DNA of 14,100 nucleotides from assembly GCA_044229975.1 (NCBI GenBank), contig JBGARZ010000036.1, positions 1-14,100 on the forward strand. Reading direction: 5' to 3'. The notes under the pieces were generated by a model. It was not told the origin of the DNA, made no database searches, and saw only the letters and a list, made by a program, of their open reading frames with translations. Shown here one piece after another: positions 593 to 6,473 of the stretch; position 1 is the stretch's first letter, and each line of letters opens with the position of its first letter. This stretch comes from Polyangiales bacterium (lineage in GTDB: Bacteria; Myxococcota_A; Polyangia; Polyangiales; Ga0077539). Position numbers and translations under genes: made by a program.

Positions 593-1006
593 ATGGACGA
601 ACCCGACCGCCCTCTGGTGCCCCCGCGCGACGAACCCGATGACCTCGTGCTTCCCGACACCCTCGACGCCCGCCACGCGGACCTCTTGCGAGAGCATGGC
701 TTCGAGGCGGCAGGCACCCTCGCGCAAGCCCTCTCGACGGACACCTACGACCTCGCGCGGGTCATCTACGCGATCGTGAACCCCGAGGCGACGGCCATTG
801 TCTACATCGGCGGCACCGAGGGCGGGCGCGACGTTCGGGTGCGGTTGCGAACGCACCTGCGGGATCGCGCCAAGATCGGTCACGTCGAAAAGGAGTCGCT
901 GCTCTTCGTCCACGTCATGCTCACCGAGTACGTCGTGCTGCACCATTTCGAGTCCGACACGGGGCGCCTGCCGGTCTGCAACAAGCGCAAGGCGGGGTTC
1001 TACTAG
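593..1006 (+). CDS. Stand-alone GIY-YIG nuclease family protein (137 aa)
   Basis: VIY-x11-YIG motif (VIYAIVNPEATAIVYIGGT), followed by the expected Arg/His helix (RLRTH), Glu (LTEYVVL) and terminal Asn (LPVCN). High GC3 codon usage. Confidence 0.8.
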   Translation: MDEPDRPLVPPRDEPDDLVLPDTLDARHADLLREHGFEAAGTLAQALSTDTYDLARVIYAIVNPEATAIVYIGGTEGGRDVRVRLRTHLRDRAKIGHVEKESLLFVHVMLTEYVVLHHFESDTGRLPVCNKRKAGFY

Positions 1007-2306: not shown

Positions 2307-3932
2307 CTACATTGGCCTAGAAACGCATCGGATGCCTATCTGATTGAATCGAATGCCAGTCGACCCATTGCCCCGTGCTGTCGTCCGCATGTTCGTCGAT
2401 GATGTGTCGACCCAAGCACCGCCACGCAACACACGGTTGATCCCAGATGTAGGTCCCGTGGGATCTAGCGCATACGATCCGGCATCGGTTGCCGCACCGT
2501 AGTTCTGGTACCAATAGTCTAGTACCCACTCAAAGACGTTGCCTGCCATGTCGGACAATCCGAGTGGCGAATCACCAGACGGGAACGAGCGGACCGCGCA
2601 GGTTGAGCCGGGAGTAGTGAGACGATTCCAGCACAATTGCGTCGTTGGCGATTCATTGCCCCAGGGGTAGGTTCGGCCGTCGGTGCCGCGTGCGGCGTAC
2701 TCCCACTGCGACTCGGTTGGTAGGTCGCCGCCACGCCATCGGCAATAAGTGCGCGATTGGTCGAAATCGACACAATTGACAGGATGGTTGTCGCGGTCTG
2801 GCACTAACCAGTTGCATGCGGTTGTGGTGTTTGGTTCGGAGCAACGCGCGGCGGATACACAGGAACGGTATTCCGACACTGTCACTTCTGTAATGCCCAT
2901 GCAAAATGCCGTAAGTCTTACGCCATGAACCGGCTGCTCGTACGAGTAGGTATTGGACCCCATCTGAAACATCCCTTCTGGGATCAGCCGCATGCCAGAA
3001 GGGCACATCGGAACGCGTGGCGGACACGCCCCGTCGGCCAGCGGTGCCCCAGCGTCACATGGCGATACAATGCATGCGGAGTCACGACAACCCCAACCAC
3101 CACGGCATGGGTTGTCGCATATCCCGCAATGATCTCTGTCGGAGGCGGTGTTCACGCATGCACCGCCGCATCTCGTTTCTCCGGCGCCACACGGTGCGAT
3201 GACATCCGTCCTCGGCACATCGTCCATTGCCACATCCACAGGAATCACGACGTCCACTGCAAGCCGGTCGATGGTCGTGGACGCATCGCCCGCGTCCTTC
3301 GTTCCGTCAACGGTAGTCACGTCACGCCCGATGTCTGCGGTAGTGGGTGCGTCGACCGTGACATCACGGTTCGCCGTGTCCGCCCCGATGTCACGGACTC
3401 CGATCGCATCTGTCTCGACGTCTGCAGCCGCCGTCCCGGCGTCGACCCCATCGAACGGGCGTACCGTCGCCCGCGTAGCGGGTTCGCAGCGCCCACGCTC
3501 TCCGCACCGTTCGTCGCTCCCGCACATTGCCCCAACGCACGCGGACGCGAGAAGCAGTGGCACCTCTTCGGTGCGCCCGCGGGTGAAGCGCACCACGGCC
3601 CGTTGCGCCACGACGGCTGTCGACGGGTCGCAGCCGTTGGGATCGCCGCACCCGAGCGTTTCGATCCAGACGGGCGTGTCGGTGTCGTCGTCGGCCGCGA
3701 TGACGCCCACCAGCAGCGGCAACGGGAGGCGCCCGTCTCCGTCGCCGAGGGTCGTCGTGCGGGCGCTCCGCAAGAGCCCCGCGGGGCCACCGCGCCGCAC
3801 GGTGAGGGTCACCGCCTGGATCGTCTGCCGCGGGCCCCACGCGACCTCGCTGTCGACCCGCACGATGAGTTCCGTGCGCGGGCGCTCGCACCCCACCGCC
3901 AGCATCGCCACCGCTACCGCAACACGTCGCAT
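2307..3932 (-). CDS. Lipoprotein with C-terminal FGE-sulfatase (SUMF1/EgtB/PvdO-family, C-type lectin fold) domain
   Basis: Signal peptide with lipobox (MRRVAVAVAMLAVG-C), Asp/Ala/Thr/Val-rich linker, Cys-rich repeat CGGACVNTASDRDHCGICDNPC, then FGE-sulfatase motifs: IPEGMFQMGS, EVTVSEY, HPVNCV, LPTESQWEYAARG, YPWGN, DMAGNVFEWV, RVLRGGAW, IGIRC. Confidence 0.9.
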   Translation of the reverse strand: MRRVAVAVAMLAVGCERPRTELIVRVDSEVAWGPRQTIQAVTLTVRRGGPAGLLRSARTTTLGDGDGRLPLPLLVGVIAADDDTDTPVWIETLGCGDPNGCDPSTAVVAQRAVVRFTRGRTEEVPLLLASACVGAMCGSDERCGERGRCEPATRATVRPFDGVDAGTAAADVETDAIGVRDIGADTANRDVTVDAPTTADIGRDVTTVDGTKDAGDASTTIDRLAVDVVIPVDVAMDDVPRTDVIAPCGAGETRCGGACVNTASDRDHCGICDNPCRGGWGCRDSACIVSPCDAGAPLADGACPPRVPMCPSGMRLIPEGMFQMGSNTYSYEQPVHGVRLTAFCMGITEVTVSEYRSCVSAARCSEPNTTTACNWLVPDRDNHPVNCVDFDQSRTYCRWRGGDLPTESQWEYAARGTDGRTYPWGNESPTTQLCWNRLTTPGSTCAVRSFPSGDSPLGLSDMAGNVFEWVLDYWYQNYGAATDAGSYALDPTGPTSGINRVLRGGAWVDTSSTNMRTTARGNGSTGIRFNQIGIRCVSRPM

Positions 3933-3957: not shown

Positions 3958-3985
3958 TAGAAATCAGCGCGGGTTCTGGTACAAT
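3958..3985 (+). promoter_or_regulatory. Putative sigma70-type promoter (TAGAAA-16 nt-TACAAT with extended -10 TG), leaderless geometry
   Basis: TGG-TACAAT at 3977-3985, 7 nt upstream of ATG 3993. Weak -35 TAGAAA at 3958-3963. No Shine-Dalgarno sequence. Confidence 0.55.
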
Positions 3986-3992
3986 TCGCGCT

Positions 3993-4325
3993 ATGGCAAC
4001 CGAAAACGAGAAGGTACTCGCAATGATCGCTGCTGGAGTAGCTGTTGGCGTGGGGATATATGGTCTGTCTGCGCTTGACGACAGCAACCGACGCAAGAAC
4101 TTTCACGCGGCATTGTCCACATCACTACGGATTATGGGTTTGGAGCCAATGTCCGCAGAGTTCGGTCGTGGGGTCGGTGACCGGCCAGAGTGGCACGTCA
4201 CGTTCGGTCACCCATCGCGAGGCATCGTATCTTACGTCGTTGCGTTTGCTCCAAACACGCAACCTTACGCAGAGTCAACTCTCAATCAACTCATCGTTCG
4301 CTTGCAGCATGCGGTGGCCGCGTGA
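3993..4325 (+). CDS. Small hypothetical protein (110 aa) with N-terminal transmembrane helix
   Basis: 3' part of ORF 2925..4325 from ATG 3993. Hydrophobic Gly-rich stretch VLAMIAAGVAVGVGIYGLSAL followed by a soluble alpha/beta-like domain. Preceded by a good -10 element. Its stop overlaps the next start (GTGA). Confidence 0.75.
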   Translation: MATENEKVLAMIAAGVAVGVGIYGLSALDDSNRRKNFHAALSTSLRIMGLEPMSAEFGRGVGDRPEWHVTFGHPSRGIVSYVVAFAPNTQPYAESTLNQLIVRLQHAVAA

Positions 4326-5122
4326 AGTTCAAGAGACCAGACGTCGAACTAATCTCACAAGAAATGCGCAGGGCTTTGGTCGCTGCGATCGAAGCAGACC
4401 AAAAGATAGACATCCTCACAGACCTGCCAAACGAGATCGCGCTCAAAGAGGAGTTGGCACGCCTTGTGGACACGGGGGAGAGGTTTTGGGTGGCGTTCGT
4501 TGAGATTGATCGGTTCAAGTCGGTAAACGACGAGTTCGGGTATGACGCTGCCAATGAGATGTTGGTCGCCGTGTCGAGAGAATTGCGGTCCGCGGAGGAA
4601 AGGTTCGCTCATGGTGCCACCGCGTTCCGAGCCCATGGCGATGAGTTCTATATTCTTGGCATGACAAAGCAGACATCCGCTGGAAAGCCGTCCCACGTCG
4701 AAGCCACTCCAGAGATGGTGCATAAGGGGCTTGACGCATTTAGGGAGTGCATCAAGAACTCTCATAAGGTCGTCGAGAAGATCGCGAAACCGATGGCATG
4801 CACCGTCAGCATTGGTTGGCTACTGTCGTCAGACATGGCCACGAAAAAGCCAACCAGCATCCTCAAGACTCTTGAGATCGTGGTTTCAGAGGCTAAGAGG
4901 GGCGGCCGCGATAAAGTTGTTCGGTTTGATGATTCAATGAAGAAGAATCTTCTTTTTACTCAGCGTGGCACTTGCACGGCATGCTACTCGGCTTTCAGTG
5001 TTGACATCCCGCGAGAGAAGAATTTGCCTGAGCGCAAGTTGCAGTGCCCAAACTGCGGGGCTGAGATGAACCGCGACCCGATGCCCGACCTGCCACCCGA
5101 GGCGGAGGTGTTGGAGGCTTAG
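4322..5122 (+). CDS. GGDEF-domain protein with non-canonical HGDEF motif and C-terminal zinc ribbon (266 aa)
   Basis: DILTDLPN, FVEIDRFKSVNDEFGYDAANEML, FRAHGDEF, CTVSIG and EAKRGGRD are all GGDEF-domain landmarks. C-terminal CTAC...CPNC. Start placed at GTG 4322, which overlaps the upstream TGA. Confidence 0.88.
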   Translation: MKFKRPDVELISQEMRRALVAAIEADQKIDILTDLPNEIALKEELARLVDTGERFWVAFVEIDRFKSVNDEFGYDAANEMLVAVSRELRSAEERFAHGATAFRAHGDEFYILGMTKQTSAGKPSHVEATPEMVHKGLDAFRECIKNSHKVVEKIAKPMACTVSIGWLLSSDMATKKPTSILKTLEIVVSEAKRGGRDKVVRFDDSMKKNLLFTQRGTCTACYSAFSVDIPREKNLPERKLQCPNCGAEMNRDPMPDLPPEAEVLEA

Positions 5123-5365
5123 TCGGTCAGCGCGGGCGCTCCGAGGCGCCGTGGCGCGCGGACGGGGCCGCGGGGTGCCGCGGGGTGGCCGCCAGCGTGC
5201 GGGGCGGCTGCGGGGGTCGCGGGCGCCGCGCGAGGTGCCGCCGACCGCTCCCCCGCGCTGCGGGGTGTCTGCCGCGCGCTCACGCCGCCCCCGTGCTCTG
5301 ACGCGGCGCGGTGTCCCGGGCGGCTTGCGCACATCCGCCTACGTTTCCCGACCGAACCGCTTGGG

Positions 5366-5382
5366 TGGCAACCGGATAGGCA
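5366..5382 (-). repeat. Candidate IS1595-family terminal inverted repeat (TGCCTATCCGGTTGCCA on the minus strand)
   Basis: Resembles the TGC(C/T)TATCC(G/A)GTT ends I recall for ISSod11-like IS1595 elements (recollection, not checked). Coincides with the breakpoint of the adjacent gene. No convincing partner in the window. Confidence 0.5.
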
Positions 5383-6057
5383 TGCTTCGTAGGCTTCGCG
5401 CCGTGCCCGCAGCGCGACGGCGGGATCGATCACCGGGGCGGCGGGGGCGTTCTTGAGCGTGCGGGCCTCGCCGAGGGTCTGCCGGAGGCGCGCGACGTGG
5501 GCCTCGTCGAGGCCGCGCTCGGCGAGCACGGAGCGCACCTTGGCGGCGCCGGGGACGTCGCTCTTGGCGAGGGCCTCGACGCGGTCGAGGAAGGTGCCGA
5601 CGGAGCCGACCACGAGCGGGCCGAGGGGCTGTTGCTGGAGGTCGCGGAAGAAGGCTTCGAGCAGGCTCTCGCGGTGGGACGCCGGGGCGAAGCGCTCGAT
5701 GATGCGGCGCGTGCGGGGGAACCACTTGTTTTCGAAGTCGTCGAGGTGCTGGAGGATGCCGACGTTGGCGCCGCCCGTGGGCGCGTCGGGGGGCGTGACG
5801 TCGAGGGGCTGCCCCTCACCGGCGGCGACGCGGTAGAGGCGCCAGCCCTCCAGATGGTCATTGGTGGAATAGGCGACGCGGGCGCGGCTGCGGGCGAGGG
5901 AGGGGTCGGCGATCTTCACGAGGAAGCGGCTGATGCGCAGGAGGCGCATGGACTCACGAGAAGAGAAGGGGGCGGGCGCGGTGTCGGTATTGGTGTTGGA
6001 TGAAGTGTCGGCAGCGGGCGTGACGGATGGCTGGACGGGTTTGCTGGACTTGCTCAT
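5383..6057 (-). pseudogene. Hypothetical alpha-helical protein, apparently truncated at its 3' end by the IS insertion
   Basis: GGAGG ribosome-binding site ~10 nt before ATG 6057. 225 codons of high-GC3, protein-like sequence (LQHLDDFENKWFPRTRRIIER...GSVGTFLDRVEAL...LAERGLD) up to ...RREAYEA. The frame then reads the candidate terminal repeat (CLSGC) and low-complexity R/A/P sequence to 5119. Confidence 0.6.
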
Positions 6058-6160
6058 TGGGGTGGACCCTCCCTTTCGGGGCGATCGTTTCATTGAGCGG
6101 GGGAGGGAGGCAAGAGGTTTGTCGTGCCCTATCGCGACGCCGCCGCCCCGGGAGCACCAC

Positions 6161-6269
6161 TCCAGGCCTGCGGTCGTCGGCCTTACCCGGAGGGACGCGC
6201 CCGTCCAGGCCTGCGGTCGTCGGCCTTACCCGGGGGGACGCGCCCGTCCAGGCCTGCGGTCGTCGGCCT
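6161..6269. repeat. 43-bp tandem repeat, ~2.5 copies
   Basis: TCCAGGCCTGCGGTCGTCGGCCTTACCCGG(A/G)GGGACGCGCCCG at 6161-6203 and 6204-6246 (one mismatch), plus the first 23 bp again at 6247-6269. Confidence 0.95.
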
Positions 6270-6270
6270 G

Positions 6271-6473
6271 AATATTGGGGTGCCCCGCCCAGATCTTCGA
6301 GATCACTGCGGCTGAGCCGGAACTCAGAAGTGTCAGTAGTGCCGAGGCTTTCTCAATCGTCCTGTGCTGGTCTGCTGCGTATTTATAGTACTCAGCATTG
6401 AAGTGGGCGTCGTATGGAAGACGCAGGGGTTGGCCCCTGGCGCATCACTCGATGCGGATGTTGCAATGTTCAT
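6271..6473 (-). pseudogene. Frameshifted, truncated small membrane-protein gene (SLATT-like N-terminus)
   Basis: GGAGG then ATG at 6473 (MNIATSASSDAPGANP). After a one-base frame change the sequence reads YDAHFNAEYYKYAADQHRTIEKASALLTLLSSGSAAVISKIWAGHPNI and ends at the tandem repeat. Lower GC than the flanks. Confidence 0.45.

Follow-up and report, generated by a model that had tools for sequence, protein, structure and literature searches.

The cassette described here is a compact 1.1-kb candidate, made up of a gene for a small predicted membrane protein (the partner) and an overlapping gene for a variant GGDEF protein (the cyclase). The pair is a real, conserved two-gene unit that is apparently undescribed. 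As it is rare, conserved, self-contained and often located among anti-phage genes, the likely reading is a nucleotide-signalling immune system not described so far. The genomic case for defence is good, and a role in defence or conflict in some form is considered fairly probable; the mechanism is proposed only.

The gene pair and its surroundings

The window, the whole stretch of 14,100 nt that was analysed, is one entire contig of a 10 Mb host genome with 71% GC. The features of the pair are listed in Table 1.

Table 1. Features of the two-gene cassette, in positions of the window.
Feature	Position	Strand	Remarks
Partner gene	3993..4325	+	110 aa; no Pfam family
Cyclase gene	4322..5122	+	266 aa; sensor-less variant GGDEF; GTG start
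Predicted TM, glycine-zipper-like segment	4014..4076	+	partner residues 8-28
HGDEF active-site motif	4634..4648	+	cyclase residues 105-109
C-terminal four-Cys zinc ribbon	4964..5074	+	R215, C218, C221, C242, C245, R251
Putative sigma70-type promoter	3958..3985	+	TAGAAA-16-TG-TACAAT; 9/12 matches

The two overlapping reading frames, the HGDEF motif and the four-Cys ribbon were all as given in the preliminary description of this DNA. The GTG start of the cyclase overlaps the TGA of the partner as GTGA and agrees with that of the homologue P0004, and the same −4 overlap was present at 16 of 30 representative loci; the public gene call for the cyclase is 14 aa shorter than the GTG-start version. 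Extensions of the reading frames to 466 aa and 310 aa were dropped because homology begins at 3993 and 4322. Both genes are single-copy in the genome. As had been noted, the GC of the pair lies below that of the host genes: 0.545 against 0.713 for the genome, which places it in the lowest 0.07% among 8,853 windows of sequence. Its GC3 values of 0.57 and 0.66 compare with 0.86-0.97 in six of the seven neighbours and 0.70 in the FGE gene.

The promoter search returned two sigma70-like sites against 0.4±0.6 in shuffled sequence. The −10 box of the listed site ends 7 nt upstream of the partner ATG, which indicates that the transcript is probably leaderless. TAnnnT was found 5-8 nt upstream of the partner start at 14 of the 18 scorable loci (37 examined), with a background of 76 in 7,482 ATG/GTG codons (1.0%). 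This conservation suggests that the cassette probably has a leaderless promoter of its own, in line with the one apparent promoter proposed for the pair.

An FGE-domain gene, an IS1595 transposase gene and a weak GIY-YIG match lie to the left of the pair, and a hypothetical gene followed by a fatty-acid desaturase gene to the right. The IS1595 transposase gene (1009-2229) and a synteny break beside the desaturase gene bear out the earlier placement of the pair in a mobile region. At four same-genus loci another membrane-protein gene, EamA-like as we judge from its sequence, stands beside the desaturase gene (a fifth locus ends at the contig edge), so that the window is lineage-specific in its left part. 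No clean empty site was found: the downstream gene has different surroundings in two genomes of the genus. PADLOC gave no match for the three window neighbours scanned, and the window was scored as defence-negative.

Several further observations concern these neighbours. The transposase gene, on the minus strand, is intact-looking, codes for a DDE domain and a Zn ribbon and is single-copy in the assembly. Convergent with it is a single-copy 137-aa reading frame (593-1006, plus strand) with the weak GIY-YIG match (E 0.028). The FGE-sulfatase/STIG1-repeat gene (2307-3932, minus strand) has numerous paralogues (47 tblastn rows) and its 3' part is GC-poor. The hypothetical gene at 5119-6057 (minus strand, ~312 aa) overlaps the cyclase stop codon, matched no family in Pfam, NCBIfam or PADLOC and is patchy, being found in 7 of 31 genomes. 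At the edge of the variable region sits an intergenic repeat (6060-6330) with many partial genomic copies (47 blastn rows, ~80-87% identity).

The cyclase and its partner

The Pfam GGDEF profile (PF00990) matched residues 29-197 of the cyclase with 70.7 bits (cut-off 23.8), and TIGR00254 scored 51.4 (cut-off 37.4). In the AF2 model (pLDDT 94) a stalk helix (residues 8-27) is followed by a DxLT turn, the GGDEF domain and the Zn ribbon, whose CxxC...CPNC motif spans residues 218-245. The predicted structure matched DGC structures with Z scores of 20-23, which indicates a GGDEF protein and not an mCpol. The parallel drawn earlier with Cas10/mCpol and CBASS-type systems was not borne out as worded, the enzyme being a true GGDEF-family member (Z ~22 to DGCs) and neither mCpol/Cas10-like nor a CD-NTase. 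The other statements on the enzyme stood. No sensor domain precedes the GGDEF domain, as the N-terminus is the single helix 8-27 leading into DxLT; the RxxD I-site is absent from the query and from the whole cyclase family; and Pfam revealed neither EAL nor HD-GYP domains among the 8 window proteins and 109 neighbour proteins.

A search of 5.8 billion proteins with the cyclase gave 186 matches. Among the best 120 of these, which were examined, 89 were relatives of 220-346 aa at E<=2e-22; below them is a gap in which only one fragment falls, and ordinary GGDEF proteins begin at 1.7e-11. All four Cys residues are present in 85 of the 89. Thirty cyclase representatives formed one branch (100/100) against a small outgroup of 11 ordinary GGDEF proteins. 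About 90 sensor-less GGDEF proteins, this cyclase included, make up a clade of their own. A label test on the tree gave no demonstration of transfer, no relative was found in IMG/VR, and no longer fused form of the C-terminal half was found, an absence of little weight. One divergent family cyclase (L100:913-1926) has a PYGDEF motif, extended termini and no partner gene.

Active-site residues were counted in an alignment of 79 cyclase sequences. The HGDEF motif is nearly invariant (H in 78/79; G, D and E each in 79/79), as is the ribbon (Cys 77-79/79, R215 79/79, R251 76/79). D63, K66, N69 and GDEF are kept in 77-79 of the 79, and the DxLT turn is kept as well; in the stalk, E26 (75/79) and Q27 (68/79) are conserved. 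The pocket is remodelled throughout the family. The first metal ligand is E in all 79 (E61 here) and D in 28/28 parsed ordinary GGDEFs, and GH..G has become GY..A (Y 74/79, A 77/79). The Arg that follows the DxLTxLxN asparagine occurs in 0/79 cyclases against 14 of the 16 ordinary GGDEFs that could be parsed (13 of 29 were unparsable); this cross-dimer Arg was mapped to residue 38 from alignments, ranges and construct limits. At the guanine-reading Asp position, 48 of the 79 have D and 31 have N; the Asn, also present in this cyclase, is spread over several branches of the tree. The query differs from canonical class I DGCs at HGDEF, E61, GY..AN and E38.

PMC3974145 describes an engineered HGDEF variant of VCA0965 that is active and still raises c-di-GMP; among the full-text matches listed for HGDEF, this mutant was the only relevant one. 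In Hypr enzymes, according to PMC6456294, replacement of Asp by Ser together with loss of the cross-dimer Arg shifts the product to cGAMP. Judged from these residues, the cyclase is probably active and its product uncertain.

The partner begins with an acidic N-terminus, followed by a Gly-rich uncharged stretch (residues 8-28, KD19 2.04), Arg-Arg and an alpha-beta-beta-beta-alpha domain. AF2 confidence is low in the TM segment, and pLDDT is 96-98 in the alpha-beta3-alpha domain. At least 15 uncharged residues occupy the helix region in 51 of 57 partner homologues, with G15, G19 and G21 conserved in 42-49. The conserved residues (n=57) are R34 (52), F37 (55), R59 (55), W67 (57), T70 (53) and Y92 (49). 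The positive-inside rule is a guide to the orientation of membrane proteins, and by it the soluble domain is predicted to face the cytoplasm.

The partner matched no known family. A word-index search gave 1 homologue and a full HMMER scan 81. No Pfam family was matched by more than 2 of the 57 members, and searches of phage and plasmid collections gave no relative. Fold searches gave nothing at E<=0.001; the best match (Z 6.6) was HPF/dsRBD-like, and no nucleotide receptor was matched. In the predicted-fold check proposed for both proteins, the cyclase thus found clear counterparts and the partner none. As the HPF/dsRBD-like matches (Z<=6.6) lie within background, we set aside a ribosome-binding or HicA-like role. 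The partner and the cyclase were also compared with each other and are not homologous. ESM Atlas searches gave sub-threshold matches only (0.77), and a look-up of sequencing runs listed none.

Fused forms of the partner were observed. At L088:7191-7919 the soluble domain, with the TM absent, is fused in frame to an upstream domain without a Pfam match, which by its motif presumably resembles Panacea/YwgA-type proteins. Further TM-less fusions are P0152, P0182, P0189 and P0193. P0124 (336 aa) combines FG-GAP repeats with a C-terminus apparently identical to that of the partner homologue P0123 and is probably an assembly chimera.

Pairing, mobility and defence genes

All six-frame segments from 147 loci were searched iteratively with the partner HMM; the metagenome scan retained 80 of 106 confirmed loci. 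The partner lies directly upstream of the cyclase at 22/22 genome loci (window included) and at 41/48 metagenome loci. Of the 77 control loci only L122 gave a match, and it is a truncated member of the cyclase family. The proposed conservation of the pair is thereby confirmed. Two of the seven metagenome misses lack upstream DNA, two show by eye a partner C-terminus at the contig edge, two come from a single locus whose cyclase is broken at its N-terminus, and the last is the divergent L100. In whole-genome partner searches 7/7 matches adjoin a cyclase, only one of them being a new locus. Between loci, sequence identities of partner and cyclase co-vary (rho 0.53, 0 of 2,000 permutations, 30 representatives), a result that can also be produced by shared ancestry alone. 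Both genes are under purifying selection, with dN<dS in every pair for which dS could be computed. No third gene recurs across lineages.

Decayed cassettes were found in each combination, although some of the breaks may be assembly errors. An intact-looking partner stands beside a broken cyclase at L070, L021, L111 and L011, an intact cyclase beside a TM-less partner at L071/L074, L076 and L088, and both genes are damaged at L018, L019, L113 and L114. The breaks seen in the cyclase are a premature stop, an internal deletion and loss of the ribbon half. Tolerance of decay on both sides is compatible with an inducible system whose genes are each harmless by themselves, and speaks against a strict toxin-antitoxin or Panoptes arrangement.

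By their labels, the loci are mostly from Myxococcota/Polyangia; Acidobacteriota, Oligoflexia and Alphaproteobacteria appear once each. The partner was present in 5 of 401 genomes of the phylum, 3 of 401 of the class and 2 of 31 of the family (this genome counted; 11 candidates per genome were scored in the two large searches), and in 0/8 other genomes of the genus. The GC of the pair is below that of its flanks at 20/22 loci. The earlier view of a self-contained module and not a housekeeping DGC is supported, and the module is conserved and moves horizontally.

Defence genes were sought with PADLOC among 242 script-called neighbours within 6 kb at 34 non-redundant loci. Thirty loci were counted after removal of the duplicate L018 and four contigs shorter than 3 kb and addition of the window; generic matches (kinases, SAM methyltransferases, ABC ATPase, AddA-like helicases, SNase, sigma54 AAA) were ignored. 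A specific match at E<=1e-20 within 6 kb occurred at 16 of the 30 loci and at 1 of 20 control loci (167 proteins around ordinary GGDEF genes of five related genomes; Fisher p=5e-4); 14 of the 30 had none. Without the PDC-only and PbeA loci the count was 10/30 (p=0.003-0.03). The enrichment for which the preliminary description proposed a test was observed. The matches include type I and II RM, McrBC, Hachiman, ShosA, Lamassu LmuA, OLD/AbiE, HEC and PDC candidates. The pair lies directly downstream of HsdR and upstream of Fic and HEC-01 (L009), among type I RM genes (L011), immediately downstream of McrBC (L091) or between Hachiman and ShosA-like genes (L088). Four of the 16 defence-positive loci carry a decayed cassette (L011, L095, L111, L113). 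At one locus only, an ApaH/PNKP-like metallophosphoesterase gene (L006:6966-7502) stands directly upstream of the pair.

Related loci cannot be taken as independent, and ordinary DGC genes make a lenient control, so that these counts demonstrate residence in islands and not function; with ordinary DGC genes of five genomes as controls, the enrichment may reflect insertion hotspots of accessory genes. With such imperfect controls, the pair is enriched beside defence genes, patchy and mobile, as is general for defence systems.

Proposed function and comparison with known systems

The reading that we prefer, while giving it somewhat less than an even chance, is a triggered anti-phage module in which the variant GGDEF protein is a cyclic purine dinucleotide synthase and the partner a membrane receptor. 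The enzyme would normally be off and would be switched on by infection, the stalk helix and Zn ribbon being likely dimerisation or sensing parts. With no I-site, the product would be made without feedback, and the remodelled base pocket may give a product other than housekeeping c-di-GMP, or much more c-di-GMP. The partner would oligomerise via its Gly-rich helix, bind the signal through conserved Arg, Trp and Tyr residues of its cytoplasmic domain and depolarise the membrane, like Cam1 and Csx23. Those proteins are a precedent for a membrane helix joined to a small nucleotide receptor. Against this stand the best partner fold match, which is not a nucleotide receptor, the helix lost or damaged beside an intact cyclase, and the 14 loci, window included, that are devoid of a defence match. 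Moreover, related genomes carry 3-13 GGDEF matches and 48 of the 79 cyclases keep the canonical Asp, so that a pore gated by c-di-GMP would risk cross-activation. It is more doubtful whether the cassette is the first anti-phage system on a true GGDEF in the full sense, with a zinc-ribbon-gated cyclase, a non-housekeeping cyclic dinucleotide and a new single-helix class of membrane receptor.

The conserved stalk residues E26 and Q27 and the absent I-site would also suit a partner that, like SiaC, acts on the cyclase stalk as membrane anchor and activator or inhibitor, the output being the unrestrained cyclase itself, whose burst of c-di-GMP and drain on GTP would arrest the infected or stressed cell. 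SiaD is the best PDB profile match of the cyclase, in an alignment that spans the stalk, and PMC8457831 describes activation of SiaD by SiaC through stalk binding. The soluble domain of the partner outlasts loss of the TM, and the −4 overlap at about half of the representative loci suits a stoichiometric complex. Most partner members nevertheless retain the TM helix, no partner-cyclase fusion was seen (weak evidence in itself), and we regard this explanation as rather unlikely. Still less probable is an accessory c-di-GMP lifestyle module, an adhesion or motility switch unrelated to phage that travels via insertion hotspots. Such a module would account for the loci lacking defence neighbours, for the guanine-reading Asp in most cyclases and for one Polyangiaceae lineage in which the pair has a fixed site amid housekeeping genes; it fits poorly with a prevalence of ~1%, frequent decay, insertion among RM/McrBC genes, the missing sensor domain, the lack of a recurring phosphodiesterase or output gene and the family-wide remodelling of the pocket.

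Invariant K66, N69, G106, D107 and E108 and a kept DxLT turn among proteins that are ~40% identical make it very improbable that the GGDEF domain is catalytically dead, or of other activity, and serves the partner as a nucleotide-binding sensor, despite the uniform change of the first metal ligand to E and the loss of the cross-dimer Arg. A guard of the Panoptes kind, with a constitutive decoy nucleotide keeping a toxic partner shut, appears the least probable. Its layout of a minimal sensor-less synthase and a membrane protein is that of Panoptes and PanDA/Panoptoo. Intact-looking partners beside broken cyclases argue against it, assembly errors being possible there, and the partner is not S-2TMbeta. 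None of the 242 neighbours is a CD-NTase, while about half of PanDA systems reportedly lie near CBASS.

The cassette could be the source of a new second messenger, made in the altered GGDEF pocket, and of a new fold among nucleotide receptors, and it would show immunity using the c-di-GMP scaffold in cells with housekeeping c-di-GMP. Even if non-defensive, the pair represents a DGC clade not described before, whose partner is near-obligate and of no known family. An August 2026 preprint (PMC13640721) mentions the exaptation of GGDEF domains in antiphage defence as a topic for later study. Searches of the openly available full-text literature, which includes that preprint, PMC11974786, 10.64898/2026.08.10.743927 and PMC13725321, listed no account of the pair. 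Those that joined GGDEF with a zinc ribbon and a defense island, or with Myxococcota and novel defense-system candidates, gave no paper.

The cassette is not CBASS, Pycsar or Panoptes. Neither protein matched the PADLOC models, CBASS and Pycsar included, at E 0.1, and the partner, earlier likened to those of Panoptes or CBASS, is no known effector. Panoptes (OptS mCpol and OptE) and PanDA/Panoptoo (a minimal DAC and PanE) have the same two-gene operon of a minimal synthase, derived from a signalling fold, and a membrane protein. Here, however, the synthase is a GGDEF protein instead of an mCpol or DAC, the partner has one predicted helix and an alpha/beta domain instead of the 2TM-beta effector, no CBASS linkage was seen, and the decay pattern argues against constitutive repression.

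The cyclase shares the GGDEF fold of SiaD (PDB 7e6g; Z 22.4, rmsd 2.8 over 186 residues) at 25% identity, and its NCBIfam SiaD score is 57 against a 290-bit cut-off. An N-terminal stalk helix, the lack of a sensor domain and a small partner protein are common to both systems (PMC8457831). In contrast to SiaD/SiaC, the cassette has HGDEF, a Zn ribbon and no I-site, and is mobile, patchy and without SiaAB; its partner, unlike SiaC, is predicted to be membrane-anchored and belongs to no known family, and SiaC was absent among the partner fold matches listed. The type III CRISPR membrane effectors Cam1 (PMC10808066) and Csx23 (PMC11014256) resemble the partner in having an N-terminal membrane segment and a small, in the partner predicted, cytoplasmic domain, and Csx23 reportedly binds its signal via Arg residues. 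The partner, a candidate receptor, differs in lacking a CARF domain and a CRISPR context; no cytoplasmic domain of the Cam1/Csx23 type was among its listed fold matches, and its helix has no conserved internal acidic residue comparable with D17 of Cam1. The Hypr GGDEF cGAMP synthases such as GacA (PMC6456294) likewise have an altered base-reading position and no cross-dimer Arg, and GacA has D at the central motif position as in the cyclase here. The cyclase is distinguished from them by Asn or Asp at the specificity position (the Asp344 equivalent), where none of the 79 cyclases has the Ser/Thr of Hypr enzymes, by the absence of REC and by its Zn ribbon.
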